DNA of 52,673 bases from Candidatus Woesearchaeota archaeon. GTDB lineage: Archaea; Nanobdellota; Nanobdellia; Pacearchaeales; GW2011-AR1. The notes below the pieces were generated by a model. The model worked only from the letters and a program-made list of their open reading frames with translations. It was not told the origin of the DNA and made no database searches. The stretch is taken from positions 1 through 52,673 of the forward strand of contig CAYUEW010000001.1 of assembly GCA_964444095.1 (NCBI GenBank), read 5' to 3'. Both the position numbers and the translations under genes were made by a program. This document shows, in pieces, positions 6,755 through 45,302 of this stretch. How positions within the stretch are numbered: position 1 is the stretch's first letter; each line of letters opens with the position of its first letter.

Positions 6755-6836
6755 AAAATGAAGATGTTAAACAACTTTAAAATTGTTGTGTTTGTTTTAT
6801 ACAAAATATTTTAAACAGACGCCACTTTTTTTATTC

Positions 6837-9125
6837 ATGGAATTTGGACAGGAAACTCCTCTTTATTCTTCAGAGGTGCAAAGAGAAGGTGGTGAAGATG
6901 TTCTTTATATTAATTACCTTGGGGCACCTTATGTGCCGGGGTTAGCCGAGTCGCCAGAAGTTATGGGGAGGACGATTGACGCCCTTATAGAAAATCCAAA
7001 TGTGACGAGGATTGTTTTTGTTCAGCAAAAAAATTATAATTATGATTTTAAAGAAACGGCTTTGCTTTTAGAGGTAGCTCAACTTTATATTTATTTTTTA
7101 AAGCAAGAAGAAATTCTGTCTCAGGCAAAGTTAATTACAAATCAACCGCAATTTTTTACACAGCGTTATAATTCTGTATTTTCTTTTTTGTTTTTGTTGA
7201 AACAAGATCCAATTGCTTCCAGGAGTGAATTAGTGAAGTTAATTATTGAAGCAAGAATTCTTTTAGAGAAAATTGGGGTGGATGCGCAAGTAGACCAGAG
7301 GGGTTATATTCATTTTTTAGAAAGATTATTAAGTAAATTGGAATCAACAGGATTGATACAAGAAGCGCTCCCGCATTTAGAAACATATCAAAAAGGAAGT
7401 CGGGGAATTTATTCTAGAATTTTCCAAGCAGATATCATTCCGAATTTTACTTTTACAAGATTAGTTTCTGATTTGCCAGAAGATGTAGAGATTATTGACC
7501 AGTATGAAATTTCAGGAGATAAAGACGATAAGTCGTTTGTAACAATTTTGAAAAGAAAAAATGAATCCAAATTGGTTTATCATCTTAACCCCCCAGAAAA
7601 TACCTTGACAGAAGAGCAGGGAGTTTTGCTTAATCTTGCGAGGGGAGTTTTAATTGAGCACCAGCCCAAGGCAGAGGAGTTTGTTGATACAGAAAGAACA
7701 CGGCAAGTTTTTTTTAATATTTCTAAAGATTTGTTGCAAGATTTGGCTCAAGCGAAAGGGATTAAATTGGGATATTCTGATTTGAATAAGTTGGCTACTA
7801 TTTTGGTAAGGCACACTATTGGATTTGGATTGATTGAAGTTTTGCTTCAGGATAAAAAATTGCAGGATATTGTTTTGAATGCACCAATTCCATTGCTTAC
7901 AATCTTTGTAAGACATCAAGATTATGATGAATGTTCAACGAATATTTTGCCGAGTCAAGAGGATGTTGATTCTTGGGCTGCAAAGTTTAGAATGCTTTCT
8001 GGGCGCCCATTAGATGAAGCTAATCCGATTCTTGATACCCAATTAGAGATTGGAAAGATAAGGGCGAGAATTGCGATTATACAAAAGCCACTTTCTCCAG
8101 ATGGGTTGGCTTATGCTATTAGGAGACATAGAGATGAGCCTTGGACTTTGCCCCTTTTTGTGAAAAACAAAATGATTAATTCTTTTACTGCGGGTTTGTT
8201 AAGTTTTTTAATTGACGGTGCAAGAACACTTCTTGTTGCAGGAACGAGAAGTTCCGGGAAAACATCTTTATTAGGAAGTTTGTTGTTGGAGATTTCTCCA
8301 AAATCTAGAATTATTGTAATTGAAGATTCATTGGAATTGCCTGTAGAATCTTTGAGGAAATTAAAATATGATATTTTAAGAATGAAAGTTAGATCTGCTT
8401 TGTTGAAAACAACCACAGAAGTTTCTGCAGATGATGGAATAAGAACTAGTTTGAGGTTGGGTGATTCTTGTTTAATTATTGGTGAAGTTAGAAGTGTTGA
8501 AGCTAAGGCATTGTACGAAGCGATGAGAGTTGGGGCGTTGGCAAATGTGGTTGCAGGAACAATTCATGGTGCTTCTCCTTATGGGGTTTTTGATAGAGTT
8601 GTTAATGATTTAGGAGTTCCTGCTACGAGCTTTAAAGCTACAGATATTGTGGCGGTTTGTAATCCGATAAAATCCCCAGATGGTTTACATTCTTGGAGAC
8701 GACTTGTGCAATTAACTGAAGTGAGAAAGCATTGGCAAAAAGACCCCATGGAAGAAAAAGGATTTGTAGATTTATTAAAATATAATATTGATAAAGATGA
8801 GCTTGAACCGAGTGATGATTTGATTAATGGAGAGAGTGAAATAATTAAAAATGTGGCATCGAATGTTCGGGGTTGGGCAGGAAATTGGGATGCGGTCTAT
8901 GATAATATTCTTCTCAGAGGAAAAATTAAACAAGAATTAGTAGACACAGCTGAAAAAACAAAAGATTTTGATTTGCTTGAGGCTAAATTTAATACTCTTG
9001 CTAATCATGCATTTCATGAAATTTCTAGCGAAGTGATAGCAGAAACAGGTCTCCCTTTGAGTGAAGATGTTTATCCTAAATGGAAAGATTGGCTTTCTAA
9101 GCAGATTAAGGGTAGAAAGATTTAA
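6837..9125 (+). CDS. Type II/IV secretion-family ATPase (FlaI/PilB/VirB11-like) with a long N-terminal extension
   Basis: Walker A GTRSSGKTS, Asp box IIVIEDSLEL, Walker B-like CLIIGEVRSVEA and His box GTIHGAS. The ATG at 6837 (MEFGQE) is preferred over the TTG at 6783. Confidence 0.85.
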   Translation: MEFGQETPLYSSEVQREGGEDVLYINYLGAPYVPGLAESPEVMGRTIDALIENPNVTRIVFVQQKNYNYDFKETALLLEVAQLYIYFLKQEEILSQAKLITNQPQFFTQRYNSVFSFLFLLKQDPIASRSELVKLIIEARILLEKIGVDAQVDQRGYIHFLERLLSKLESTGLIQEALPHLETYQKGSRGIYSRIFQADIIPNFTFTRLVSDLPEDVEIIDQYEISGDKDDKSFVTILKRKNESKLVYHLNPPENTLTEEQGVLLNLARGVLIEHQPKAEEFVDTERTRQVFFNISKDLLQDLAQAKGIKLGYSDLNKLATILVRHTIGFGLIEVLLQDKKLQDIVLNAPIPLLTIFVRHQDYDECSTNILPSQEDVDSWAAKFRMLSGRPLDEANPILDTQLEIGKIRARIAIIQKPLSPDGLAYAIRRHRDEPWTLPLFVKNKMINSFTAGLLSFLIDGARTLLVAGTRSSGKTSLLGSLLLEISPKSRIIVIEDSLELPVESLRKLKYDILRMKVRSALLKTTTEVSADDGIRTSLRLGDSCLIIGEVRSVEAKALYEAMRVGALANVVAGTIHGASPYGVFDRVVNDLGVPATSFKATDIVAVCNPIKSPDGLHSWRRLVQLTEVRKHWQKDPMEEKGFVDLLKYNIDKDELEPSDDLINGESEIIKNVASNVRGWAGNWDAVYDNILLRGKIKQELVDTAEKTKDFDLLEAKFNTLANHAFHEISSEVIAETGLPLSEDVYPKWKDWLSKQIKGRKI

Positions 9126-10112: not shown

Positions 10113-12269
10113 ATGCCAAAGAAATTAACTGTTGAAGAGGTTCTTAGGAAGCATGGTGGAAAGATAGAGCGCCAGATTGGAGCGATGCCCAAGAAGACGA
10201 ATTATAGTCAAGAATATATTAAATTTAAAAAAGAAATTTCTCCAGAACTCGGGCGTTATGAAAAATGGTGTAGAAGTTTAGGGCAGATTATCAAACTTAA
10301 AGTTTCTAAAAAAGATGAAGATAAAATACGGAAACACCTTGAGATAGCACATTTGAATGTTGAACCTTGGCAATCTTTAACCCTTAGTGTAATGGGTTTT
10401 TTGGCAATGTTCTTGTTAAGTTTAATAATTTCCATAGCAATAACTTTTATTAATGGAAGTTTAGCAGCGTTTCCTTTTTCCTTTTTCATTTTAATGATTG
10501 TATTTTCAATTTTTATTTTTTATTTTGTGAATAATTATCCAGAAAGATTAGCAAATAAATGGCGTCTTAAAGCATCTTCTCAGATGGTTCCTGCAATTTT
10601 GTATATTGTAGTTTACATGCGACATACGCCAAATTTAGAGAGGGCTGTTGCTTTTGCATCGCAACATTTAGAGCCGCCTCTTGCATTGGACTTTAGGAAA
10701 ATTTTCTATAATGTAGAAGTGAGAAAGTTTTCAACGATTAAGGAAAGTTTAGATAATTATTTGGACTCTTGGAAAGATTATTCTCTGGAATTTGTGGAAG
10801 CTTTTCATTTGATTGAAAGTAGTTTATTTGAACCAGATAATGCTCGAAGAATTTCTACTCTTGAAAAAGCATTGCAAGTTGTATTGGATGGAGTTTATGA
10901 TAGGATGTTGAAGTTTACCCATGATGTTAGAAGTCCTTTGACAAATGTTTATATGTTGGGAGTTGTGTTACCTACCTTGGCTTTGGCATTATTACCTCTT
11001 GCATCTGCTATGCTTGGAGGATTATTAACAGGTTATCATATTTTTATTATGTTTAATCTTCTTGTTCCTTTTTTTGTATTTTATCTTACAGATAAAATAA
11101 TGTTGTTAAGACCGGGAGGTTATGGGGAAACAGAATTGTTGGAAAAGAATCAATTTTATGCAGAATATAAAGATAAAAAACATTATGGTAAGGCTTTGCT
11201 GATTTGTTTGCCTTTTTTACTTATTGGACTTTTGCCTTTGATTGCACAATATACGCCGATTATGGAATTGATGGGGTTGCAAAAAGATTTTACCTTTGCA
11301 GATATTGGACTGGGTTTATTTGGAGAGGAAAACTTTTTTGATTTTAAAGAAACTGCAATAGGAATTGTTGGACCTTTTGGGGTGGGTGCTTTGTTATTAG
11401 GAATGTTTATTCCAGTAGGAATGGCTTTATTTTTTATTATAGCATACAAAGATAAAACTAAAAAATTAATTCAAGCGAGGAGGAAGACAAAACAATTAGA
11501 AAAAGAATTTAATAATTCTCTTTTTCAATTAGGGAATCGGATAGGGAATGGTATGCCTCCTGAACTTGCTTTTGGTAGAGTTGCAGAATCTTCTAAGGGA
11601 TTAATGACTGCGGATTTTTTTAGAAGGGTGAATTATAATATTCAGCAAGGGGGATTGAGTGTTGAGAAAGCGATTTTTGATAAGAAGAGGGGAGCCATGG
11701 TTTTGTATCCTTCAAGTATTATTGCGACAAGTATGAGAATTTTGGTCGAGTCTTCGAAGAAAGGTTTGAAGATTGCAGCAATAAGTTTGATGAGCATTTC
11801 AGAGTATGTTAAGAATATGCAAAAGATTACTAACCGACTTAAGGATATGTTAGCAGAGATAGTTTCAGATATGAAAAGTAATATGACTTTCCTTGCACCG
11901 TTGCTTTCTGGGATTGTTGTGGGCTTAGCGTTTATGATTACTTCTATTTTAAACAAATTGAATCTTGCTAGTTTATCTGGGGGAGATGTAGGAATAGGAA
12001 ATCTCGGAAGTATTTTGAATATTTTTGATTTAACGAAAATGATTCCCCCTTATTTCTTGCAAATAATAATTGGTATTTACATAATCCAAATAGTTTTCAT
12101 TCTTACTGGAACTCTTGTTACAATAGATTCTGGAGAAGATAAATTAGAAAAGACCCACAAGGTTGGACAAAATTTGAAAAAAGGAATCTTACTTTACTTT
12201 GTCACAGCAGTTTTATCAACACTTGCGTTATTTGTTTTGAGTTCTGTTGTCTTGGGGAACTTAGGATAA
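10113..12269 (+). CDS. Large polytopic membrane protein, candidate FlaJ/PilC/TadC-like pilus platform
   Basis: 718 aa with two clusters of TM helices separated by soluble helical regions. Its position next to the secretion ATPase matches the canonical ATPase-platform gene pair. No sequence motif was verified by eye. Confidence 0.55.
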   Translation: MPKKLTVEEVLRKHGGKIERQIGAMPKKTNYSQEYIKFKKEISPELGRYEKWCRSLGQIIKLKVSKKDEDKIRKHLEIAHLNVEPWQSLTLSVMGFLAMFLLSLIISIAITFINGSLAAFPFSFFILMIVFSIFIFYFVNNYPERLANKWRLKASSQMVPAILYIVVYMRHTPNLERAVAFASQHLEPPLALDFRKIFYNVEVRKFSTIKESLDNYLDSWKDYSLEFVEAFHLIESSLFEPDNARRISTLEKALQVVLDGVYDRMLKFTHDVRSPLTNVYMLGVVLPTLALALLPLASAMLGGLLTGYHIFIMFNLLVPFFVFYLTDKIMLLRPGGYGETELLEKNQFYAEYKDKKHYGKALLICLPFLLIGLLPLIAQYTPIMELMGLQKDFTFADIGLGLFGEENFFDFKETAIGIVGPFGVGALLLGMFIPVGMALFFIIAYKDKTKKLIQARRKTKQLEKEFNNSLFQLGNRIGNGMPPELAFGRVAESSKGLMTADFFRRVNYNIQQGGLSVEKAIFDKKRGAMVLYPSSIIATSMRILVESSKKGLKIAAISLMSISEYVKNMQKITNRLKDMLAEIVSDMKSNMTFLAPLLSGIVVGLAFMITSILNKLNLASLSGGDVGIGNLGSILNIFDLTKMIPPYFLQIIIGIYIIQIVFILTGTLVTIDSGEDKLEKTHKVGQNLKKGILLYFVTAVLSTLALFVLSSVVLGNLG

Positions 12270-12300: not shown

Positions 12301-12504
12301 ATGAAAAAGAGGAGTAAAAATAAAAGATTTTCCTACTACAATTTTTTTCCAAAAAATCGCAAGGCAATTATTTCAGAGTATCTTCCCTGGCTGTTGATTG
12401 CCATTGCTGTTCTTGCAATCCTAATGATAACTATTTTTTTATTAAAGGGACAGGGAGTTTCTTTGATAGACAAGATTAAGGAGTTGCTTGGGGGAGGCAG
12501 ATGA
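12301..12504 (+). CDS. Small single-TM protein, possible atypical prepilin
   Basis: Basic leader ending NRKA, followed by IISEYLPWLLIAIAVLAILMITIFLL. Its stop overlaps the next start (ATGA). Confidence 0.4.
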   Translation: MKKRSKNKRFSYYNFFPKNRKAIISEYLPWLLIAIAVLAILMITIFLLKGQGVSLIDKIKELLGGGR

Positions 12505-13274
12505 CAGAGTTAACTACAAGTCAATTAATAAAAATCATTCTTGGAATTTTTGTTGTAGTTGCAGTAGTGATAGGAGTCTTTTTATTCTTTAAGGGAAATG
12601 TAATTGATTTTTTTAAGAATCTACCTGGAACAGAAGAACCCTCTGGGGGAGCTGGAGCTTCAAAAGAGATAGGAGAAGAAGTTGAGGGAGAGACTCTAGA
12701 AATTCCTGGAGAAGAAGGTGAAGAAGAAACTGATTTGTCTTGCGAAGAATCAGATTGTACTTCTACTCTTCCAGAAGAATTGAGTTGCAGACTTGGAAAT
12801 GTTTTTGGTTATTTGCATAAATGTTCTCGAGGAGAATGTGTTAGAACAAGGGTGAAAAAAAAGATTTATGATTGTGAATTTGGTTGTACTGATGGAGAAT
12901 GTGATGTTTCTAAAGAAGAAGAAGCTGAAGAAGAAATTCCTGAAGAAGAAGATGAAGAAGAAACTGATTTGTCTTGCGAAGAATCAGATTGTACTTCTAC
13001 TCTTCCAGAAGAATTGAGTTGCAGACTTGGAAATGTTTTTGGTTATTTGCATAAATGTTCTCGAGGAGAATGTGTTAGAACAAGGGTGAAAAAAAAGATT
13101 TATGATTGTGAATTTGGTTGTACTGATGGAGAATGTGATGCTTGTTTGCCTACTGGAACTATTATTGGAAAAAATGTTTTGGTGATTGGAACTCCCAGTG
13201 GGTCTTGTTGTGATGAAGCTTATTGTGCTGAAAGAGGGTTTTTGGGAATGTGTAAGGAATATAAGTGTGGATAA
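12501..13274 (+). CDS. N-terminally anchored, Cys-rich acidic protein containing a perfect tandem domain duplication
   Basis: N-terminal TM (IKIILGIFVVVAVVIGVFLFF). Two identical 62-aa Cys-rich units (EEETDLSCEESDC...CTDGECD) are joined by poly-Glu linkers, followed by a Cys-rich C-terminus. Confidence 0.6.
   Translation: MTELTTSQLIKIILGIFVVVAVVIGVFLFFKGNVIDFFKNLPGTEEPSGGAGASKEIGEEVEGETLEIPGEEGEEETDLSCEESDCTSTLPEELSCRLGNVFGYLHKCSRGECVRTRVKKKIYDCEFGCTDGECDVSKEEEAEEEIPEEEDEEETDLSCEESDCTSTLPEELSCRLGNVFGYLHKCSRGECVRTRVKKKIYDCEFGCTDGECDACLPTGTIIGKNVLVIGTPSGSCCDEAYCAERGFLGMCKEYKCG
12719..13140 (+). repeat. Direct duplication: 188 bp, identical by eye, at 12719-12906 and 12953-13140 (period 234 bp)
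   Basis: Base-by-base reading of both copies found no mismatch. The duplication is in-frame (78 codons). Confidence 0.85.
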
Positions 13275-13275
13275 A

Positions 13276-13707
13276 ATGAATAAAAAAGGATTTTTACTTG
13301 GAGAAGAAACTCTGAAAGTGGTGCTTGCGGTAATTGGTATTGGATTTTTAGTTTTTTTCTTAATGTCTCTTTATTATTCTTTTAATCGTAATAAGGATTT
13401 AGAACTTGCAGAATCTTCTTTAAATTATTTAATAGAACAAATTGAGTTAGAGAGCGAAGAAGCAGAAATTTACAATCCCGACAAATGGATATTGGCATCT
13501 TATAATAGGGGAGATATGCCTGAACTTTATTTGGGGAGGGATTGGGAAAATTGTATTTGTATTTGTGAAAAAGATTGTTCCAAAACTCAAAATACTGAAA
13601 TGGTTTGTGTAGAAAGCGAGTATTCTATTTCCCCCGCAAGCATTGAAATTGACTCGCCCTTGAATTTAGAAATTAATCCTATAAATAAAGTGATAACTAA
13701 AAAATAA
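13276..13707 (+). CDS. Pilin-like protein with class III signal (MNKKG|FLLGEE...)
   Basis: KKG followed by about 20 hydrophobic residues, with Glu at +5 relative to the predicted cleavage site. Cys-rich C-terminal part. The ATG at 13276 is 1 nt after the previous stop. Confidence 0.55.
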   Translation: MNKKGFLLGEETLKVVLAVIGIGFLVFFLMSLYYSFNRNKDLELAESSLNYLIEQIELESEEAEIYNPDKWILASYNRGDMPELYLGRDWENCICICEKDCSKTQNTEMVCVESEYSISPASIEIDSPLNLEINPINKVITKK

Positions 13708-13708
13708 A

Positions 13709-13810
13709 ATGGATATAGATGTTTTAATAAAATATTTAATGTGGATTGTTCTTTTTATCTTGGCTTTGACTGGATTATATTTTATGTTTAAAAAATTGGG
13801 GATTATGTAA
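13709..13810 (+). CDS. Small ORF (33 aa, single TM), absent from the ORF track
   Basis: MDIDVLIKYLMWIVLFILALTGLYFMFKKLGIM. It starts 1 nt after the upstream stop, and its TAA overlaps the next ATG (TAATG), so the packing suggests it is real. Confidence 0.35.
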   Translation: MDIDVLIKYLMWIVLFILALTGLYFMFKKLGIM

Positions 13811-14550
13811 TGAAAAAAATTAACAAAAAAGGGGAGATGACTTCTAAGCAAATAGTTACGCTTATAATTTTGATTACTAGTTTTGTGGTGCTCTTGATTT
13901 TATTTTTTAGATTGGATTTGGGGAGAGTAACTGATTCTGAAATTTGTCATAACTCTGTTGTTTTATCTGCTGCAGGTAAAAGTTTGGTAAGTGAACTTGA
14001 TTGTAAAACAGCATATGTTTGTATTTCTGGGGGAGAAGAATGTGAAGGAATTGTTCCGACAGAGACAGCTAAAATTAATATGAAAAAAGAAGAAAAAATC
14101 GTTAAGGAAGAAATTATGCAAGTTTTAGCTGATGAGATGGTAGATTGTTGGTGGATGTTTGGGGAGGGAGAATTAATTTATGCCCCTAACGCCGACGGGT
14201 ATCATTGTGCACTTTGTAATGTTGTGAAATTTGATTCTTCTATTCAAGAAAAATTTCCAGAATTAACTTATGCAGAATTTTATAATTATTTATCTATAAT
14301 AGAAAAAACAGAAAATAAAAATTATTTAGAATATCTTTATGGAACTTATAATTTGGAAATGGTGAAAGAAAAAAATAAGAAAATAAACATAGATACAGAT
14401 AAGATTTCTACTGCAGAAAAATTTGTCGTTCTCACAGGAATTGATCCTAGGATAGTATTGGTTGATAAAGTTATTTTTCCTTGGCTTGTAAAGTATGACC
14501 AGATAAAAACAAAAACAAAGTGTGAGGTTTTTGATATTACTCAAGCTTAA
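13810..14550 (+). CDS. Pilin-like protein with class III signal (MKKINKKG|EMTSKQIVTLIIL...)
   Basis: KKG plus a hydrophobic helix. The 246-aa ectodomain has several Cys pairs. Confidence 0.5.
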   Translation: MKKINKKGEMTSKQIVTLIILITSFVVLLILFFRLDLGRVTDSEICHNSVVLSAAGKSLVSELDCKTAYVCISGGEECEGIVPTETAKINMKKEEKIVKEEIMQVLADEMVDCWWMFGEGELIYAPNADGYHCALCNVVKFDSSIQEKFPELTYAEFYNYLSIIEKTENKNYLEYLYGTYNLEMVKEKNKKINIDTDKISTAEKFVVLTGIDPRIVLVDKVIFPWLVKYDQIKTKTKCEVFDITQA

Positions 14551-14570: not shown

Positions 14571-14589
14571 TTATTTGGTTTTTTGTCTT

Positions 14590-14994
14590 ATGAGGAAACT
14601 TTCTAAAAAGGGGAATATTCTAACAGAGTATATTATTTTTATTGTCTTAAATTTATTTTTTGCAACAATTCTTATTTTATTTTTAGCTTCGCGGATGGGC
14701 GCGGGGGGGGTTTTGGAAGAGGGATATGCAAAGCAAATAGCATTAAGTTTGGATGCTGCAAAACCAGGGATGAGAATTTATATTGGAATGGAAGGTGCAT
14801 TTGAGGTAGCAAAAAAAGAATTGGGAGAGGGAAGCATTGGAGGATTGGTAGGAATTGAAGGGAATATTGTGACGGTGCGACTTCAGGAAGGTTTGGGATA
14901 TTCTTATTCTTTTTTTAATAATGTGGATGTTACAACTTATTTAGATCCTTCAACTAATTTGGGTTATATCTTTATTGTGGACGAAATAAAATGA
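14590..14994 (+). CDS. Pilin-like protein with class III signal (MRKLSKKG|NILTEYIIFIV...)
   Basis: KKG plus a hydrophobic helix, with Glu at +5. The ATG at 14590 is preferred over the TTG at 14575. Its stop overlaps the next start (ATGA). Confidence 0.55.
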   Translation: MRKLSKKGNILTEYIIFIVLNLFFATILILFLASRMGAGGVLEEGYAKQIALSLDAAKPGMRIYIGMEGAFEVAKKELGEGSIGGLVGIEGNIVTVRLQEGLGYSYSFFNNVDVTTYLDPSTNLGYIFIVDEIK

Positions 14995-16121
14995 AAAATA
15001 AAAAAGGAGATAAAATATTTTCAGCGTATTGGTTTATAATTCTTTTTGCAGTAGCTGCTGCTGTGGTTTATATGGTTTCTATTTTTTATGGGATGCCTTA
15101 TGATGCAAGGAATTTTGAAGCAGAAATACTAACAAACCAAATTGCAGATTGTTTATCCCAAGGAGGATATCTTAAAGGTAATTCTTTTTTGGGTTCTGAT
15201 TCTTTAAGCATGTTTTTAGAAGAATGTGATTTGACTTTTGATGTTGAAGATACTTATGGCTGGGAAGAACAAGGGCAATATTATGTAGAAGTTCATTTAT
15301 ATGATTTTGATGAAAATGCTTCAACAGGAATAGGGGAAGAAGTTTCTAATTTTATTGTGGGAAACAGTAACCTAAAAACTTCTTTCATGATGGAAATAGC
15401 AGCGCAAGAGAAAGGAAATAAGGAGTTGGTGGTGATTCATTATACTGCGGGGTATACTTTGGCAGGGGCAATAAATGAGTTTGATGGAAATGAGCATAAA
15501 AGTATTCATTATATTATAGATAGGGATGGAACAGTAGTAACGAGAAAAGATGAAGATAAAACTGCTTATCACGCTGGATGTGAATTTGGTAGACCTTATT
15601 GTGAAGAAGGTAATGATGTAACCCCTGCTCCTGGAGAAGATTGTTGTAGAAGGGGAACAAACTCAAGGTCTATTGGAATTGAGTTAATTAATCTGGGTTA
15701 TGCTTGTGGTTGGGAAAATAATAAAGAACTTTGTCAAAATTTAGGAGTGGTTGAGTTAGATTACTTTTTTCTTGAAGCAACATCTGACAAAGAAGGTTTT
15801 TGTGGAGTTAGTACAGGAATTTGGGAGGAATATTCTGATGAACAAATAGATGCTTTATCTACTTTAGTTGCAGGAGTGGTTTCCCAGAATAATATTCCCA
15901 TTGATAGAGAACATATAGTTGGGCATGATGAGATGGATCCTTGTCGGAAGAAAGATCCTGGTCCAGCATTTCCTTGGGAGGTATTTATGGGGAAAGTTAA
16001 GGAAAGAGCAAAATTAGACTCTTCTGTTGGAAGAAATTTTTATGTTTTAGATAGAGCAGGAAATCAGTATGTGGTTCAAATTTTAACAATTGTAGATAAA
16101 GTAGAAAAAAATGCTAAATAA
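14991..16121 (+). CDS. Prepilin-signal protein carrying an N-acetylmuramoyl-L-alanine amidase domain (Amidase_2 / AmpD / PGRP fold)
   Basis: N-terminus is MKNKKG|DKIFSAYWFIILFAVAAAVVYMV. Amidase motifs: VVIHYTAG, HYIIDRDGTVV, AYHAG, NSRSIGIELIN, EQIDAL..LV and IVGHDEMDPCRKKDPGPAFPW. The last compares with the AmpD block GHsDIaPgRKtDPGp.FpW. Confidence 0.8.
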   Translation: MKNKKGDKIFSAYWFIILFAVAAAVVYMVSIFYGMPYDARNFEAEILTNQIADCLSQGGYLKGNSFLGSDSLSMFLEECDLTFDVEDTYGWEEQGQYYVEVHLYDFDENASTGIGEEVSNFIVGNSNLKTSFMMEIAAQEKGNKELVVIHYTAGYTLAGAINEFDGNEHKSIHYIIDRDGTVVTRKDEDKTAYHAGCEFGRPYCEEGNDVTPAPGEDCCRRGTNSRSIGIELINLGYACGWENNKELCQNLGVVELDYFFLEATSDKEGFCGVSTGIWEEYSDEQIDALSTLVAGVVSQNNIPIDREHIVGHDEMDPCRKKDPGPAFPWEVFMGKVKERAKLDSSVGRNFYVLDRAGNQYVVQILTIVDKVEKNAK

Positions 16122-16647
16122 AATAAATTTAAAAAAAGCGTCAATCGGGGAAACAATGACTTGGGTAGTGGCAACAGCAATTGTCGTCGTCGTTTTGCTT
16201 GCTTCTGTATTTATTACTTCTCTTTTAGCAAAAACTAAATCTGTTGATAGGAATTTTTTATCTGGAGGAGGAGAAGATTTGGTGGTGACAAAATCTTTGT
16301 CTGCTTATTTGTTAACAGAAGAAAATGGAGAAAACGTTTTTGAGCAATTGATGGATAATAAAGATTCAGAAGATATTGGAGGAATTTTTGGAGAATTTAA
16401 TGGAAATTTAGCAGAAGATATTTTCTTGAAATTATATGTTGAAGATTATAGTGCAAGTAAAATTTGGTTAGGAACTTATTTGAAAGGATATGGTCATAGA
16501 GGAAATAGTTATTTTCGTACATCCCCAGTGGATTTTATTCTGGAATCTGGAATTCTGCTAATAGAAGTAAAAAAAGGGCAAACTTTTGTTGTGAATCAAA
16601 TAGAACTTGATGAAAAGAATTGGTTTGTGGTGGCGTTAACAAATTAA
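16111..16647 (+). CDS. Pilin-like protein with class III signal (MLNKINLKKA|SIGETMTWVVATAIVVVVLL...)
   Basis: KKA plus a hydrophobic helix. It overlaps the amidase gene by 11 nt. Confidence 0.5.
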   Translation: MLNKINLKKASIGETMTWVVATAIVVVVLLASVFITSLLAKTKSVDRNFLSGGGEDLVVTKSLSAYLLTEENGENVFEQLMDNKDSEDIGGIFGEFNGNLAEDIFLKLYVEDYSASKIWLGTYLKGYGHRGNSYFRTSPVDFILESGILLIEVKKGQTFVVNQIELDEKNWFVVALTN

Positions 16648-16648
16648 A

Positions 16649-16984
16649 ATGAAATTAAAAATGAAAAATAAAAAAGCAGATATTACGATTACAATTTTAG
16701 TAATATTGATTACTTCAATTTGTATTTTAACCATAACTAGTTTTCTTGTATCTAAGGAAAAAGTTCAATCAAATTATTTGGGGTTGGAACTTTTTGAAGG
16801 AATGAGTGCTGATGTAGAAACATTTTATTTTTATTTAAATGCAGGATTTACTGAAAGCGAAGCAGCAGAAAAAATTGGAGCAGAAATGGAAGGGAGCAAG
16901 TTGGTAATTGATAAAATTTTTAAAGAGAATAAAGATGATTTAGTTTCTGTGCATTATAACATGAGTGTCGTTAGAGGGTCCTAA
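16649..16984 (+). CDS. Pilin-like protein with class III signal (..MKNKKA|DITITILVILITSICIL...)
   Basis: KKA plus a hydrophobic helix. It starts 1 nt after the upstream stop. An alternative ATG exists at 16661. Confidence 0.5.
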   Translation: MKLKMKNKKADITITILVILITSICILTITSFLVSKEKVQSNYLGLELFEGMSADVETFYFYLNAGFTESEAAEKIGAEMEGSKLVIDKIFKENKDDLVSVHYNMSVVRGS

Positions 16985-17032
16985 AAATTGTTTAAGCAGA
17001 AGTTTTATAAATAAAATAATCTTAAATTGAAT

Positions 17033-17383
17033 ATGCAGAATAAAAGAGGGCAGGGGTTGAGTACTAATGCAATTATACTTATTGTTCTAGGAGTTGTAAT
17101 CTTGGTTGTGATGATAGTCGGATTTACTATGGGTTGGTCTAATATTGCACCGTGGATATCAAATGAAAATGTTGATACAATTGTTACTCAATGTCAAACA
17201 GCTTGTTCGACGATGAGCGTGTATGATTTCTGTACTAAAAAAAGAGAATTAACTGCAAGCGGTTTGCCTGAGGGTGAAAAGAGTGTTACTGAAGATTGTC
17301 AATTCTTTGCCGATACAGCAGGATATGAAAGTTATGGGATAGCAAAATGTCCTAGTTTAACTTGTCCTACAATAGTAAGTTAA
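17033..17383 (+). CDS. Small pilin with a canonical archaeal class III signal (MQNKRG|QGLSTNAIILIVLGVVILVV...); candidate major pilin
   Basis: KRGQ motif plus a hydrophobic helix. 116 aa with 8 Cys in the globular part. It has its own TATA-like box (gttttataaata) about 25 nt upstream. Confidence 0.6.
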   Translation: MQNKRGQGLSTNAIILIVLGVVILVVMIVGFTMGWSNIAPWISNENVDTIVTQCQTACSTMSVYDFCTKKRELTASGLPEGEKSVTEDCQFFADTAGYESYGIAKCPSLTCPTIVS

Positions 17384-17409
17384 TTAAATTAATTTCTTGT
17401 GTGTTGTTT

Positions 17410-17532
17410 ATGGATTATGCATTTTCTCAAAAAAGAAATAAAGGTAAAAGTAAAAAAAAGGAAAAGAAAAAACATCCATATAAAAAAGGTGGAAGTGCGA
17501 GGGTGAGATTGCCAAAAGAAAAATCAAAATAG
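17410..17532 (+). CDS. Possible small, very basic ORF (40 aa; MDYAFSQKRNKGKSKKKEKKKHPYKKGGSARVRLPKEKSK)
   Basis: ATG-to-TAG ORF in the 179-nt gap between the pilin and peptidase genes. It is A-rich and low-complexity, so it may be fortuitous. Confidence 0.15.
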   Translation: MDYAFSQKRNKGKSKKKEKKKHPYKKGGSARVRLPKEKSK

Positions 17533-17562: not shown

Positions 17563-18408
17563 ATGTTTGAGGTGATTTTTTTATGGGGTTTGGCTTTAGT
17601 TTGGATTATATTCGCAACAATTCAAGATTGGAAAAGTAGGGAGATTGCTAATTGGCTTAGTTTTTCTTTGATAGTTTTTGCATTGGGATTTAGATTTTTT
17701 TATTCATTGTTTATGGGGGGTAATTTTTCATTTTTTTATCAGGGATTGTTTGGATTAGGAATCTTTTTTGTATTAGGAAATATTTTTTATTATGGAAAAA
17801 TTTTTGCAGGAGGTGACGCAAAATTAATGTATGCCATGGGTGCTGTGTTGCCCATTTATGGAACCATTATAGAGAATGCTCAATTTTTTCTTACATTCTT
17901 ACTTTTATTCTTTTTCGCCGGTGCTGTTTATAGTTTGATTGTTAGTGGGGGGTTAGCGATAAGGAATTTTAAAAATTTTAAAAAAGAATTTGGTAAACAA
18001 TTTAAGAAAAATAAAAAATTATTTTATCTTACTTTGTGTGCTGGTTTAGGAATTATGCTTTTGGGTTTTGTTGAAGCTTCATTTTTTATGTTTGGAGTTT
18101 TGCTTTTTATTACAGCGTATTTATATATTTTTGCAAAAGCAGTTGATGAATCTTGTATGGTTAAGACGATGAATGTAAAAAAATTAACAGAAGGAGATTG
18201 GCTTTACTCTGATTTAAAATTCGGAAGGAAAAAAATCAAAGCAACATGGGACGGGCTCACAAAAAAAGATATAATTGCTATAAGAAAGAATTGTAAAAAT
18301 GTCAAAATAAAACAAGGAGTGCCTTTTACCCCTGCATTTTTGTTAAGTTTAATAATTTTATTTTTATTTTACTTATTGGATATTAATCTATGGGCTCTTT
18401 TGTTTTAA
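17563..18408 (+). CDS. A24-family prepilin/preflagellin peptidase (PibD/FlaK-like)
   Basis: Polytopic protein with the first catalytic Asp context ATIQDWKSREIANW and the second FAGGDAKLMYAMG (GxGD-type). Confidence 0.8.
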   Translation: MFEVIFLWGLALVWIIFATIQDWKSREIANWLSFSLIVFALGFRFFYSLFMGGNFSFFYQGLFGLGIFFVLGNIFYYGKIFAGGDAKLMYAMGAVLPIYGTIIENAQFFLTFLLLFFFAGAVYSLIVSGGLAIRNFKNFKKEFGKQFKKNKKLFYLTLCAGLGIMLLGFVEASFFMFGVLLFITAYLYIFAKAVDESCMVKTMNVKKLTEGDWLYSDLKFGRKKIKATWDGLTKKDIIAIRKNCKNVKIKQGVPFTPAFLLSLIILFLFYLLDINLWALLF

Positions 18409-21199: not shown

Positions 21200-21273
21200 A
21201 TTTCTGGGTGTATATTCTATCAGATATATGTTAGGCGAATAATCTTTATAAATAGGAAGTGGTTTTGTTTTTT

Positions 21274-22284
21274 ATGGTTATTAAGAAAGCTGAGAAGAAA
21301 AAAGAGGATGAAGAAGTTTCTGATACAAAAGAAGATTCTGGAGATCCAAAATTAACTGATTTACCTGGGATTGGGCCCGCAGTTTCAGCTAAATTAGAAT
21401 CAGCAGGGGTTTATGATATGATGAGTTTGGCAGTTATGGGGCCTACAGAATTAGGGGATGCTGCAGGAGTTAGTCCAGCTGTTGCAAGAAAAGCCATTCA
21501 AGCTGCAAGGAACATGTTGGATTTGGGATTCAGTGATGGTTTAGAATACGCAAAGAAAAGAGCTAATATTTCATATATCGCAACAGGAAGTCAAAGTTTT
21601 AATGAACTCTTGGGGGGAAAGGGTGTTCAGAGTAGAGCAGTAACAGAAGCGTTCGGTGCTTATGGTTCTGGTAAAACTCAACTGGGTTCTACATTAGCTG
21701 TTAATGTGCAACTTCCTACAGAACAAGGGGGAGCAAATGGTAAGTGTGTTTTTATTGATACAGAAGGAACTTTTAGACCGGCAAGAATAAGACAAATCGC
21801 GGAAAACTTGGGAGCGAATCCTGAAAAGGTTTTGAAAAATATTTTTGTTGCAAGAGCATTTAATTCAGACCACCAAATTTTATTATTGGAAAAAATTTCA
21901 GAAATGATTAAAGCAGGTGAGCCGATTAAGTTATTGATAGTTGATTCTTTGACGGCGCATTTTAGGGCAGAATTTGCTGGGCGAGGACAACTTGCAGATA
22001 GACAACAAAAGTTGAATAGATATATGCACAATTTAATGAAACTTGCAGAACAACATAATCTTGCAGTTTACGTAACCAATCAAGTGATGGCGAATCCTGC
22101 ACAGATGTTTGGTGATCCCACAACAGCAATTGGGGGGCACATAGTAGGACATGCATCAACTTATAGAATTTATTTGCGAAGAGGGAAGAAGGATTCTCGA
22201 GTTGCAAAATTAGTTGACAGTCCTGATTTGCCAGACAATGAAGCTATATTCTTTTTGAGTGACGCTGGTGTTATCGACGAGTAA
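21274..22284 (+). CDS. radA: DNA repair and recombination protein RadA
   Basis: N-terminal HhH (LTDLPGIGPAVSAKLESAG), Walker A GAYGSGKTQ and Walker B LLIVDSLTAHFR. A TATA-like ctttataaata lies about 20 nt upstream of the ATG at 21274. Confidence 0.9.
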   Translation: MVIKKAEKKKEDEEVSDTKEDSGDPKLTDLPGIGPAVSAKLESAGVYDMMSLAVMGPTELGDAAGVSPAVARKAIQAARNMLDLGFSDGLEYAKKRANISYIATGSQSFNELLGGKGVQSRAVTEAFGAYGSGKTQLGSTLAVNVQLPTEQGGANGKCVFIDTEGTFRPARIRQIAENLGANPEKVLKNIFVARAFNSDHQILLLEKISEMIKAGEPIKLLIVDSLTAHFRAEFAGRGQLADRQQKLNRYMHNLMKLAEQHNLAVYVTNQVMANPAQMFGDPTTAIGGHIVGHASTYRIYLRRGKKDSRVAKLVDSPDLPDNEAIFFLSDAGVIDE

Positions 22285-31132: not shown

Positions 31133-32149
31133 TTAATAAGGTTTTGGTTCGAAAATCTCATCAATAACTTCAAAATCATCAGAGATTAAATCAGCAAAAC
31201 TAGGATATTTATCTGCACCTGAATAATAAAATCTTATTGTATTTTTTTTAATTGGGATTGCCCCACAACCAAAAATTACATTTGGTACTTCTGGGAGATA
31301 ATCCCCTCTTCCAATTTCAAAATCTAATTCAGGTTTAATTAAAGGAGAAATAGACCTTTCCAAAATCTTTTTTGGATTTTTCTCATCTGCGAATATATAC
31401 CCCATTTTATAGGTGTTTGTTTTTTTATCTGCACCATGGTATAACATAAATAAAACTTTTCCATATTTTTTGTGTTCACATTTTATCGCAGGAGTGTTTA
31501 TTCCAACTCTTGCATCATCCCACATGTCTTTTCTTGGTAATAAATAATCTTTAAATTCTCCAAATTTTAGTGGATTTAAATTTTCTACTCTTGCTATTTG
31601 TGCACAAGGAGTTTCATTTGATTTTCCAATAAAGGGTCTGTCAATAATGAAGTTGTAAATTTCATTATTAAAAAATAAAGCATTTTTGTTTTCCTGTTTA
31701 TTATTTAAAATAATTTGCCTATCATAATATTCCTTGAAATTTTTTGTTTTTGCTAATCCTGTTCTTATAACGTTTTTGTTGTTTTCAACTCCCTTGTATG
31801 CTGTGAAAGTTATAAAATATTCATTACCTATTTGAGTTATTCTTGCATCTTCAGTAGCAGTTTTGGCATCCTCATCCAATTCAATAAAAGGTTTTTTTTC
31901 TAATTCAAAATCTTTCCCATTTTTACTCCATGCTAAAAATAAACCACTATTTTCTGAATTATATCTTATAGTGTATAACAATCCTATTTTGTTCTCATAA
32001 AGGAATGCAGCAGGGTTTCTTATTGAAGAATAACCTTCTTGAACAAGATTTAATATTGGTTTTCCAAATTTATGAACCTCAATTGAAGTTAAGGTATTTT
32101 CTAAATTAGAATTCTTTGTGTTAATAAAATCAGGACATCCCTTTTCCAT
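31133..32149 (-). CDS. GH130/DUF377-like beta-propeller glycosidase or phosphorylase
   Basis: NPAAFLYENKIGLLYTIR and TEDARITQIGNEYFITFTAY blocks resemble the GH130 family (by eye). Confidence 0.5.
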   Translation of the reverse strand: MEKGCPDFINTKNSNLENTLTSIEVHKFGKPILNLVQEGYSSIRNPAAFLYENKIGLLYTIRYNSENSGLFLAWSKNGKDFELEKKPFIELDEDAKTATEDARITQIGNEYFITFTAYKGVENNKNVIRTGLAKTKNFKEYYDRQIILNNKQENKNALFFNNEIYNFIIDRPFIGKSNETPCAQIARVENLNPLKFGEFKDYLLPRKDMWDDARVGINTPAIKCEHKKYGKVLFMLYHGADKKTNTYKMGYIFADEKNPKKILERSISPLIKPELDFEIGRGDYLPEVPNVIFGCGAIPIKKNTIRFYYSGADKYPSFADLISDDFEVIDEIFEPKPY

Positions 32150-43339: not shown

Positions 43340-43477
43340 ATGAAGAAATACTTGCTTCTTATAGAGGATGAGAAACTTTGGGGTAAATTTAAAGAAAGTA
43401 TAGAAAAAGATATTAATAGTGAAATTTTAAAATTGATAAAGGAGAAAGTAAATCCAGAGGTGACCAATGAAAAATAA
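43340..43477 (+). CDS. Small ORF (45 aa) with a ribbon-helix-helix-like pattern, absent from the ORF track
   Basis: MKKYLLLIEDEKLWGKFKESIEKDINSEILKLIKEKVNPEVTNEK reads as a short beta strand followed by two helices. It overlaps the start of the 611-aa gene by 11 nt, and a TATA-like box lies about 25 nt upstream. Confidence 0.4.
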   Translation: MKKYLLLIEDEKLWGKFKESIEKDINSEILKLIKEKVNPEVTNEK

Positions 43478-45302
43478 ACGAGGACAAATTACAATTTTTA
43501 TTATTATCGCGATAGTTTTAGTGGCAGGAGTGGCTGTTTTTTTTGTATTTAGAGATAGTCTGGGATTTACAAAGATTCCTGCAAATATTGAACCAGCATA
43601 TAATTCTTTTTTAACTTGTTTAGAAGATGAAGCTAGTATTGGAGTAGAAGTTTTAGGAAGCCAGGGGGGCTATATTGAATTACCAGACTTTGAACCCGGC
43701 TCTGTTTACATGCCTTTTTCTTCTCAGCTTAATTTTATGGGAAGCCCAATTCCCTATTGGTATTATGTTTCTAGTAATGGTGGGGAAGAAGAACAAGTTC
43801 CGTCACAAACAGAAATGGAAAGGCAGTTGCAAATATTTGTTGAAGAAAGAATAAAGAATTGCAATTTAGAAAGATATTATGAAGAAGGTTTTGAAATAGA
43901 ATTTGGAGAGCCAGAAGCAAAAGTGGATATTTCAAATAAAAGGGTGGAGGTGAGATTAACAATGCAGGTAGAGATGAGAAAGAATGAAGACTCTGCTTTA
44001 ATTAAAACGCATAAAATTTCAGTGGATTCAAAATTAGGGAAGCTCTATAATTCTGCCAAAAAGATTTATGAGAAAGAACAAAAGAATTTGTTTTTGGAAA
44101 ATTATGCTGTGGATACATTAAGACTTTATGCTCCTGTTGACGGGGTAGAGATTACTTGTTCCCCTTTAATCTGGGATACAAATGAGATTTTTGATTCCTT
44201 AGAAGAAGCAATTGAAGTGAATACTTTTGCCTTAAGAACTGATGAAGATTTCCTTACGCAAGAGCAAGAGTATTTTGTTGTGGATGTGGATGTTGATGAA
44301 GAAGTGAGATTTATAACCTCAAATACTTGGCCTCATTCTTTTGAAGTGTTGCCTTCAGATGGAAATGTCCTCTTAGCAAATCCTGTTGGAAATCAGCCGG
44401 GTTTAGGAGCATTGGGTTTTTGTTATGTGCCATATCATTTTGTATATAATGTAAACTATCCTGTATTGGTTCAAGTATCTTCTGGAGAAGAACTTTTCCA
44501 ATTCCCTTTTGCAGTAGTAATTCAAGGTAACAAACCAAGAGAATCATTAAATGCTGCTGCAAGTACGGTTGATATTGAATTATGTAAATATAAGAATACA
44601 CCAGTTTCGGTGAAGGTTTATGATGCTTTTATGAATCCCATTGAAGCAGAAATTTCTTACAAATGTTTTGGAGAAAAATGTAATATGGGAACTACAGATG
44701 AAGGGGTATTAAACACAGAATTTCCTCAATGTGTTAATGGATATGTGATTGCTAGAGCAGAAGGGTTTAATAATAAGAAACAAATTTTATCGACGACAAA
44801 TGCAGGAAGTGTGAGTTTAATGATGGATAAACTTTATGAGACGGACATTAATTTAAAATTAGATGGAAGTAATTATGATAAAGAAGCAATAATTTATTTT
44901 ATATCTGCAGATGAAACAAAAACTGTTGTTTACCCCGAGCAAAATTCTGTAGAATTAGTAGAAGGGCAATATGAAGTTCAAGTTTATATTTTTGATAATT
45001 CAGAAATAAAATTACCTGAGACAAATTATGAAGAGTGTGTTGAGGCAAGTAGGTCTGGAATTGGGGGTTTATTTGGTATGACAGAACAAAATTGTTTTGA
45101 TGTGTCTATTCCTGCACAAGTTATTTCTAATGCTCTTATAGGAGGAGGGAAGCAAGAACAGTATATTTTAGAATCTGAATTGCAAGAATCTAATTCAATA
45201 GAAATTCTTGCAGAGAGTTTAACAGCTCCTAAAACATTAGATGATTTACAAAATAATTATCTTTTATTTGAAGATAAAAAATTAGATATATATTTCACAT
45301 GA
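43467..45302 (+). CDS. Large (611 aa) protein with a canonical archaeal class III signal (MKNKRG|QITIFIIIAIVLVAGVAVFFVF); candidate pilus-associated adhesin
   Basis: KRGQ plus a hydrophobic helix identical in type to the small pilin at 17033. The stop overlaps the ATG of the giant gene (ATGA). Confidence 0.6.
   Translation: MKNKRGQITIFIIIAIVLVAGVAVFFVFRDSLGFTKIPANIEPAYNSFLTCLEDEASIGVEVLGSQGGYIELPDFEPGSVYMPFSSQLNFMGSPIPYWYYVSSNGGEEEQVPSQTEMERQLQIFVEERIKNCNLERYYEEGFEIEFGEPEAKVDISNKRVEVRLTMQVEMRKNEDSALIKTHKISVDSKLGKLYNSAKKIYEKEQKNLFLENYAVDTLRLYAPVDGVEITCSPLIWDTNEIFDSLEEAIEVNTFALRTDEDFLTQEQEYFVVDVDVDEEVRFITSNTWPHSFEVLPSDGNVLLANPVGNQPGLGALGFCYVPYHFVYNVNYPVLVQVSSGEELFQFPFAVVIQGNKPRESLNAAASTVDIELCKYKNTPVSVKVYDAFMNPIEAEISYKCFGEKCNMGTTDEGVLNTEFPQCVNGYVIARAEGFNNKKQILSTTNAGSVSLMMDKLYETDINLKLDGSNYDKEAIIYFISADETKTVVYPEQNSVELVEGQYEVQVYIFDNSEIKLPETNYEECVEASRSGIGGLFGMTEQNCFDVSIPAQVISNALIGGGKQEQYILESELQESNSIEILAESLTAPKTLDDLQNNYLLFEDKKLDIYFT

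Follow-up and report, generated by a model that had tools for sequence, protein, structure and literature searches.

A predicted murein amidase nested in a subunit of a type IV pilus-like operon from a Pacearchaeota-like archaeon

In bacteria, small carrier proteins with a class III leader, encoded in filament operons, can bear a grafted module: such modular type IV pilins include PilB and PilC of S. sanguinis and GspK (Raynaud et al. 2021, PMC8179133), the minor pseudopilin of the type II secretion system in which the extra domain is inserted in the sheet region of the carrier and not appended to it. A similar arrangement is described here for an archaeal locus, in which a predicted zinc-dependent murein amidase is nested in a small protein of a type IV pilus-like operon (subunit 6, 376 amino acids; positions 14991-16121, + strand). 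The locus lies on contig CAYUEW010000001.1 of the NCBI GenBank assembly GCA_964444095.1 (Candidatus Woesearchaeota archaeon), of which positions 1 to 52,673 of the forward strand were analysed; this whole stretch of 52,673 nucleotides is called the window.

Gram-negative bacteria have Amidase_2 enzymes in the periplasm or at the outer membrane, among them AmpDh2, AmpDh3 and AmiD. Their substrate is polymeric wall material, and these lipoproteins or soluble periplasmic proteins have C-terminal binding domains of their own. The periplasmic enzymes AmpDh2 and AmpDh3 take part in turnover of the cell wall, and the wall peptidoglycan of prey bacteria is hydrolysed by AmpDh3 (PMC12494544). Archaeal enzymes of the Woldo/Danwoldo type, known from Halogranum salarium, join a catalytic domain to a peptidoglycan-binding domain, are exported through Sec or Tat and are diffusible; secreted archaeal peptidoglycan hydrolases are enriched in Nanoarchaeota and can kill bacteria (PMC12352652). 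The prepilin pathway of archaea also serves proteins that do not build filaments, as in the Sulfolobus bindosome: the substrates of PibD include substrate-binding proteins (PMC4858521).

Few uncultured archaea are as widespread as Pacearchaeota and their relatives, and it is not settled what they live on. Pacearchaeota and Woesearchaeota are suspected episymbionts of bacteria, owing to large lytic-transglycosylase proteins of up to 3000 amino acids (fam00969; Castelle et al. 2021, PMC8204110), and the same possibility was suggested in PMC9723730. These earlier genomic hints of bacterial hosts rested on giant, poorly understood proteins.

The amidase domain and its carrier

An earlier reading of the bare sequence (the original prediction) had described the 376-residue open reading frame (ORF) as a peptidoglycan amidase of the Amidase_2/AmpD/PGRP fold fused to a prepilin-type signal, and the motifs that it quoted, the MKNKKG start and the hydrophobic helix are all present. 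The enzyme assignment was borne out by profile searches: Pfam Amidase_2 (PF01510) matched residues 145-325 with E=4.7e-24 (85.6 bits against a cut-off of 26) and was covered from position 6 to 131 of its 131 positions, and PHROG amidase and endolysin families also matched, down to E=5e-15. Sequence and profile searches of the PDB led to AmpDh2 (E=8e-20 with the family profile), AmpDh3, AmiD and AmpD. Structure prediction agreed: an AlphaFold2 model of the whole protein, built on 28 homologs (predicted local distance difference test score, pLDDT, 76), was matched by Foldseek to AmpDh2 (4bj4, E=1.4e-8) and AmpD (2y28, 5e-8), more weakly to LysC (6ssc, 2.4e-5) and a PGRP (2r2k, 5e-3), and also to clostridial and staphylococcal amidase endolysins. 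The nearest solved structures are those of periplasmic AmpDh2, AmpDh3 and AmiD, not of cytosolic AmpD. Amidase_2 was the sole Pfam domain in subunit 6, and the Pfam scan recognised no peptidoglycan-binding domain.

The inserted domain was delimited by Pfam, PDB search, alignment and Foldseek to residues 143-338 (15417-16004, +). Its predicted zinc ligands form the His-His-Asp triad of the fold, in which T7 lysozyme has a Cys, and are H150 (15438-15440), H312 (15924-15926) and D322 (15954-15956), and the alignment points to E231 (15681-15683) and K320 (15948-15950) as catalytic residues, all on the + strand; the latter two we take to be the equivalents of Glu116 and Lys162 of AmpD. Four of these residues (H150, E231, H312 and D322) do not vary among 28 full-length homologs (40-57% identity), and K320 is kept in at least 90% of them. 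The HYT, GIE and GH..K.DPGP blocks, and the zinc ligands with them, align with those of AmpDh2, AmpDh3 and AmiD, so the zinc site that had been described as intact is so in the family as well. Judged by sequence, the amidase domain is genuine and has an intact, working-looking active site. The Cys-rich insertion that had been noticed between AYHAG and the GIE block is real (residues 197-220, directly after AYHAG), though it varies among homologs and is missing in P0026 and P0027.

What did not stand is a simple fusion of the amidase to a prepilin-type signal. The enzyme is an insertion of about 200 residues in a loop of a subunit of about 170 residues, which we call the scaffold. A class III-like leader (MKNKKG, residues 1-6) and a hydrophobic helix (residues 7-34; together 14991-15092, +) are followed by the N-terminal part of the scaffold globular domain (15093-15416, +), with a helix at 39-57, strands at 97-106 and 114-124 and a second helix at 126-139. 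Downstream of the amidase, the C-terminal part (16005-16118, +; GRNFYVLD...QYVVQILTIVDKVEKN) supplies strands at 348-353 and 359-368 and aligns with the C-terminus of insert-free homologs of 170 amino acids; in the family alignment this tail is conserved as GRxFYVLD..NQYxIKIL.IVGK.EKN.

The scaffold was also searched on its own, by removing the amidase from the family alignment and searching for homologs again. At least 378 proteins were obtained, mostly of 165-175 amino acids, with 100% coverage of the construct and 45-52% identity; those that bear a name are labelled Candidatus Pacearchaeota archaeon. In a joint alignment the amidase falls in the loop GNxNLK-FC...P.C, which is flanked by two cysteines in the short, insert-free form, and this short form holds exactly the position of the amidase-bearing form in the same operon. 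An exhaustive profile search gave 1151 representatives of the scaffold family at E<=1e-3 (668 at E<=1e-10), most of them without any insert. Subunit 6 is a conserved operon subunit of about 170 amino acids with an enzyme nested in one loop.

Wall hydrolases in related subunits

The suggestion that related genomes be surveyed for the same fusion proved fruitful. About 19 of the best 150 scaffold representatives bear inserts, recognisable as proteins of 330-420 amino acids with two matched stretches. Eleven of the inserts are Amidase_2 (P0001, P0012, P0018 and P0021, and seven more by Pfam scan). In three other scaffolds (P0310, P0339 and P0356) the insert is an SLT lytic transglycosylase (PF01464, E=4e-8 to 6e-12), with which the inserts of P0316, P0334 and P0342 align. 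All six SLT-type inserts have GxMQI and GYNGWG, and five have QES, replaced by KEA in P0342. Their site differs from that of the amidase, and lies in all six between the second helix and the first strand. The operon of P0356 is orthologous, and the N-termini of the neighbouring subunits in it are recognisably the same; P0356 itself gave no PDB sequence match, and the SLT assignment is by Pfam and motifs. As in a modular carrier, then, the scaffold exists alone in relatives, and the extra modules, Amidase_2 or SLT, are separable from it.

A further member, P0255 (367 amino acids), carries about 190 additional residues at the amidase loop, for which no Pfam, PHROG or PDB match was found; a Cys/His peptidase, suspected from the sequence, was unsupported. 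P0255 groups beside an amidase-bearing member in the tree, and its insert may be a module swap.

The amidase is also found outside the scaffold. In locus L011 the scaffold has no amidase and the next subunit carries the same amidase lineage at its C-terminus (44% identical, with the same Cys-rich insert). This carrier was equated with subunit 7 of the window by gene order and by its N-terminal motif (RKAQIGTTLTW, against KKASIGETMTW in the window). A rough domain tree has the L011 amidase nested inside the clade of scaffold amidases, which suggests that it was secondarily relocated to the neighbouring subunit. A separate amidase lineage stands at the C-terminus of pilin-like proteins (for example with KKG followed by QVLLYG or VIFEA), which in L013 are encoded in another DPANN pilus-like locus, beside an RPA-like gene.

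A different type of gene was seen in L007 (4433-5566), directly after the platform gene of the orthologous operon: a 377-residue ORF with an M23 metallopeptidase-like C-terminal domain, which scored 28.2 bits in Pfam against a cut-off of 28.7 and matched a PHROG metallo-endopeptidase family with E=2e-8. We read it as a third wall-hydrolase type tied to the machine.

The history of the inserts was approached with trees. A neighbour-joining tree of close scaffold homologs placed 28 of 29 amidase-bearing scaffolds in one clade, and a second one, with divergent representatives at 50% identity, placed them in a subtree of 38 leaves mixed with insert-free forms, the SLT forms being scattered; these neighbour-joining trees do not fix the number of gains and losses of inserts, and support for a single amidase lineage comes only from the amidase-domain tree. 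Outside archaea, the nearest relatives of the amidase are bacterial lipoproteins that join a polysaccharide deacetylase to Amidase_2, which fits an acquisition of the domain from bacteria. Subunit 6 in its ancestral form would have had about 170 amino acids, with one long hydrophobic helix after a short basic leader ending in Gly or Ala; a small alpha/beta domain and a disulfide-type loop would have made up the rest. Into this loop one sub-group would have taken up a zinc N-acetylmuramoyl-L-alanine amidase of the AmpDh2/AmiD kind, derived from bacteria, and would have kept its active site intact. These findings indicate that murein hydrolases were grafted onto the machine repeatedly.

The operon and its surroundings

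The genes around subunit 6 form a compact co-directional block: an ATPase, a membrane protein of 718 amino acids, about nine small proteins and an A24 peptidase. The assembly ATPase (6783-9125, +; start placed about 18 codons downstream by gene callers) is of the archaeal GspE/CpaF/FlaI type, with a Pfam T2SSE match (E=1.9e-15) and best PDB matches to A. fulgidus GspE (2oap, 1e-26), CpaF (5e-23) and FlaI (5e-14). The 718-residue polytopic protein (10113-12269, +) is labelled a platform protein (TadC/FlaJ-like) by position only, and always follows the ATPase in L001, L004, L006-L009 and L014. At the other end, the prepilin (A24) peptidase (17563-18408, +; 281 amino acids) was identified by Pfam Peptidase_A24 (E=2e-11, 44.7 bits against a cut-off of 26.5), and a GGD motif is visible in its sequence. 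By these assignments the operon is type IV pilus-like, as had been predicted. It belongs to a Pacearchaeota-like DPANN archaeon.

The [KR][GA]-plus-helix architecture claimed for the neighbours of subunit 6 was likewise found, in the following small proteins, all encoded on the + strand. Subunit 1 (12301-12504) is a small pilin-like protein with NRKA followed by IISEYLPWLLIAIAVL, and the N-termini of its orthologs are conserved in L008 and L014. Subunit 3 (13273-13707; MNKKG, then FLLGEETLKVVLAVIG) and subunit 5 (14575-14994; SKKG, then NILTEYIIFIVLNL) are pilin-like and have Glu at +5. The remaining pilin-like proteins are subunit 4 (13810-14550; 246 amino acids; NKKG, then EMTSKQIVTLIILI), subunit 7 (16111-16647; LKKA, then SIGETMTWVVATAIVVVV) and subunit 8 (16649-16984; NKKA, then DITITILVILITS). 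Subunit 9 (17027-17383; NKRG, then QGLSTNAIILIVLGVVIL) is Cys-rich, has 118 amino acids and may be the major pilin. The subunit 6 gene overlaps both neighbours, the stop of subunit 5 through ATGA and subunit 7 by 11 nucleotides, which we read as translational coupling with both.

Subunit 2 (12501-13274, +) has a hydrophobic N-terminus without the [KR][GA] motif and a lineage-specific Cys-rich extension of about 200 amino acids that is missing from orthologs of 49-58 amino acids in L008, L004 and L014. Within it, a 234-bp tandem duplication (12698-13140; 1.9 copies, 99% identical) encodes two copies of a Cys-rich module of 62 amino acids. The extension matched no family and may be another module grafted onto a pilus subunit. 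Between the genes of the candidate major pilin and the A24 peptidase lies a very basic ORF of 36-56 amino acids (17362-17532; ...KRNKGKSKKKEKKKHPYKKGGSARVR...), conserved also in L001 (12420-12542), L008 (11810-11929) and L006 (12472-12594).

The rest of the window is archaeal in content, with genes for RadA, EF-1beta, eIF2alpha, NDK, an RPA-like OB protein, SRP54, FtsY, a Hef helicase with an XPF nuclease and a Cdc45-like DHH protein. Independent assemblies of this sequence show the same gene order, with the flanking HIT, EF-1beta, RPA and RadA genes in place, and so do loci whose amidase protein is only 43-50% identical, among them one on a 601-kb contig that bears the label Candidatus Nanoarchaeia; because of this repetition the contig is not considered chimeric. 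The G+C content at third codon positions of the amidase insert (0.21) lies within that of the operon genes (0.15-0.27). A bacterial or chimeric contig and a recent transfer were thus ruled out, by synteny and host-like composition, and the archaeal setting of the original prediction was upheld.

Other features of the window and of related loci were recorded. A GH130 gene (beta-1,4-mannooligosaccharide phosphorylase family; 31133-32149, - strand) lies between the SRP54 and FtsY genes, a carbohydrate-scavenging enzyme amid otherwise informational genes. A 611-residue ORF (43467-45302) also has a class III-like N-terminus (MKNKRG, then QITIFIIIAIVLVAGVAVFFVF) and overlaps by 4 nucleotides the start of a 2096-residue ORF (45299-51589) with a Sec-like signal; neither had a Pfam match, and the larger protein, considered as a candidate for the published lytic-transglycosylase giants, had no SLT domain on checking. 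Intein/LAGLIDADG insertions interrupt RadA in L007 (16423-20430) and L009 (16331-18817) and a gene with an MJ0043_C domain in L006 (19211-21215); the RadA gene of the window (21259-22284) has none.

Proposed role, alternatives and comparison with known systems

Taken as a whole, the data are best explained, and with fair probability, by a conserved Pacearchaeota-like type IV pilus-like machine whose subunit 6 displays a murein amidase against bacteria. On export, subunit 6 would keep its N-terminus in the membrane; the A24 peptidase of the operon would probably cut it after Gly6, and it would be assembled with the other pilin-like subunits, most plausibly in a tip or minor-pilin-like position (compare GspK, whose pilin sheet also carries an inserted domain). 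The machine would thereby hold the amidase outside the cell. As its substrate we propose the sacculus of a bacterium touching the archaeon; cross-links of that wall would be lost locally as stem peptides are stripped from the glycan strands, and this could permit attachment, entry of the fibre, or a way to the membrane and contents of the bacterium. We infer the A24 cleavage, the incorporation and display in a fibre, the action on murein and the bacterial partner. To our knowledge, archaea of this group do not make murein, and in an archaeon without murein the substrate should be foreign; an unlike wall-cutting enzyme in the same subunit of relatives also suggests a device aimed at bacteria.

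The case for a pilin-like subunit starts from its N-terminus. MKNKKG precedes DKIFSAYWFIILFAVAAAVVYMVSIFYG, that is, a basic leader ending in Gly stands before a hydrophobic helix of 26-28 residues (helix at residues 5-34 in the AlphaFold2 model), a segment that in our judgement is too long for a Sec signal peptide. The motif N-K-[KR]-[GA]-([GAT])-[DE]-K-I-I-S-V-Y-W-F is conserved in 142 family members. Eleven of the 192 ORFs of the window begin with [KR][GA] and a hydrophobic stretch, and seven of these fall within 12.3-17.4 kb, where an eighth such N-terminus (MNKKG, then FLLGEE) escaped the motif scan only through its charged residues.

Several observations weigh against this proposal. A hydrolase is missing from most members of the scaffold family and is thus not required for the core role of the machine. 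That murein synthesis is absent from this archaeon is, as far as we know, true of archaea in general, and is assumed here on that ground. The 718-residue membrane protein had no T2SSF/TadC or other match in Pfam, NCBIfam or PDB sequence searches. No pilin family turned up when all operon neighbours and 60 scaffold homologs were scanned with Pfam and NCBIfam, only stray sub-threshold matches (for example DUF7287 at 19 bits in one member). A model of the insert-free scaffold (pLDDT 81) has an N-terminal helix and a four-stranded sheet, and Foldseek matched it to no solved pilin in the PDB (best E=0.035, a ribosomal protein). The predicted mature protein begins with Asp-Lys at +1/+2, a start that is atypical for archaeal class III substrates under the FlaFind pattern, and an invariant Gly-x-Pro break separates the membrane helix from the globular domain. 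Lastly, an uncleaved signal anchor would have the same sequence appearance as this N-terminus.

The same features make an uncleaved anchor a serious rival, namely the want of pilin profile or fold likeness, the charged Asp-Lys directly after the putative cleavage site and the Gly-x-Pro; we rate it as unlikely, while giving it more weight than any other rival. Subunit 6 would then be a bitopic protein of the assembly apparatus, with a role like that of PilN, PilO or GspM, and the amidase would sit at the base of the machine on the cell surface, acting only where the archaeal membrane is pressed on a bacterium, or on soluble wall fragments. The order of elements after the membrane helix of the scaffold (alpha-beta-beta-alpha-beta-beta) can also be quoted in its favour, but archaeal pilins have a short N-terminal helix and then the globular domain directly, and PilO/GspM-type structures are just as absent from the top 50 Foldseek matches of the scaffold as pilins are. 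A plain anchor, moreover, needs no Gly or Ala after its basic leader, and one of the two is found in all 142 members examined; nor does it explain why the same class III-like motif is common to seven to eight operon neighbours, some with Glu at +5 (two subunits).

A second rival holds that the amidase is mainly a nutrient-scavenging or antibacterial enzyme and not a device for attachment or penetration, that it takes stem peptides off murein debris or off the walls of competitors, and that the pilus operon serves only for its export and co-regulation. AmpDh2/AmiD-type enzymes do handle both sacculi and muropeptides (PMC12494544), many biosynthetic pathways are missing in DPANN archaea (PMC9723730), and secreted peptidoglycan hydrolases of archaea are bactericidal (PMC12352652). 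A diffusible enzyme would, however, be served more simply by a Sec/Tat signal, as in the characterised archaeal enzymes, and subunit 6 lacks both that signal and the peptidoglycan-binding domain of the secreted modular hydrolases. Because the amidase is embedded in a structural subunit, was re-attached to another when it moved, and has an SLT counterpart that took the same host protein, physical coupling appears to have been selected, and not mere co-expression. We regard this rival as decidedly improbable.

Lower still in our estimate stands a non-catalytic role, in which the domain would be a murein-binding adhesin like the receptor-type PGRPs, gripping the wall without cutting it. Modular pilins usually bear adhesive modules (PMC8179133), and non-enzymatic binders are counted in the Amidase_2/PGRP fold (PMC1383489). 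Against this, the SLT alternative keeps its catalytic Glu-Ser motif in 5 of 6 members. Receptor PGRPs typically lose their zinc and catalytic residues, but here, in homologs down to 40% identity, no zinc ligand varies, nor does the catalytic Glu, and the Lys is at least 90% conserved.

Remodelling of the archaeon's own wall, or of an archaeal host's pseudomurein, for passage of the pilus is scarcely credible, for all that bacterial secretion and pilus systems often have wall hydrolases of their own: most scaffold members have no hydrolase, so the machine assembles without one, while murein-type hydrolases are reported to be normally absent in archaea and are read in these lineages as aimed at bacteria (PMC8204110), and only 2 of the surveyed archaeal peptidoglycan hydrolase homologs came from pseudomurein-making classes (PMC12352652).

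If subunit 6 is displayed as proposed, a wider idea can be put forward tentatively, as one that may well go too far: the minor or tip subunit would be a swappable carrier of murein enzymes (amidase, SLT, possibly others), and the filament a cross-domain wall-breaching organelle used to attach to, pierce or feed on living bacteria. Should this idea prove true, it would be direct molecular evidence for bacterial hosts of a very abundant uncultured lineage. Subunit 6 is small and expressible, its predicted chemistry is clear, and gene order ties it to a defined surface machine; the same carrier subunit acquired two unrelated murein hydrolases, so that the idea of some DPANN archaea targeting bacteria becomes directly testable. 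The scaffold family, with its 1151 representatives, could also be used as a marker in surveys of which lineages have wall-degrading modules.

In the literature searched, no description was found of a murein hydrolase built into an archaeal pilus-operon subunit, of a characterised pilin-amidase fusion (none was known to the original prediction either) or of an archaeal pilus with an enzymatic subunit. The text of PMC8179133 and the text of its supplement, which may be incomplete, contain no amidase or lysozyme architecture. Modular pilins and archaeal peptidoglycan hydrolases, of which subunit 6 is a variant, are known already.

Compared with the enzymes that it most resembles, the subunit 6 amidase has the zinc site and the sequence blocks of AmpDh2, AmpDh3 and AmiD, but differs in having two extra Cys-rich sub-insertions, in being without their binding domains and in being nested in another protein. 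With Woldo and Danwoldo of Halogranum salarium it shares an archaeal origin, a murein hydrolase domain of bacterial type and a reading as aimed at bacteria (PMC12352652); unlike those proteins, it has a class III-like N-terminus and no known binding domain, and is built into a pilus-operon subunit. The fam00969 proteins come from the same lineages, and the same purpose, binding or degrading bacterial walls, was inferred for them (PMC8204110), but they are unlinked to a pilus operon, whereas here small hydrolase domains sit in a subunit of 170 amino acids.

Among prepilin-type systems, the Sulfolobus bindosome is the archaeal precedent for non-structural, functional proteins that use the prepilin pathway; its proteins bind sugars and are not enzymes, belong to another lineage and have no inserted-domain architecture. 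The closest parallel is with the bacterial modular pilins: in both cases a small carrier with a class III or class III-like leader, encoded in a filament operon, bears a grafted module, and in GspK as in subunit 6 the module is inserted in the carrier. Subunit 6 differs in that it is archaeal, its carrier has no detectable similarity to known pilins, its module is a predicted murein amidase (SLT in relatives) and its display on a filament is only proposed; the modular pilin concept would thereby be extended from bacteria to archaea, and from adhesive to enzymatic modules.

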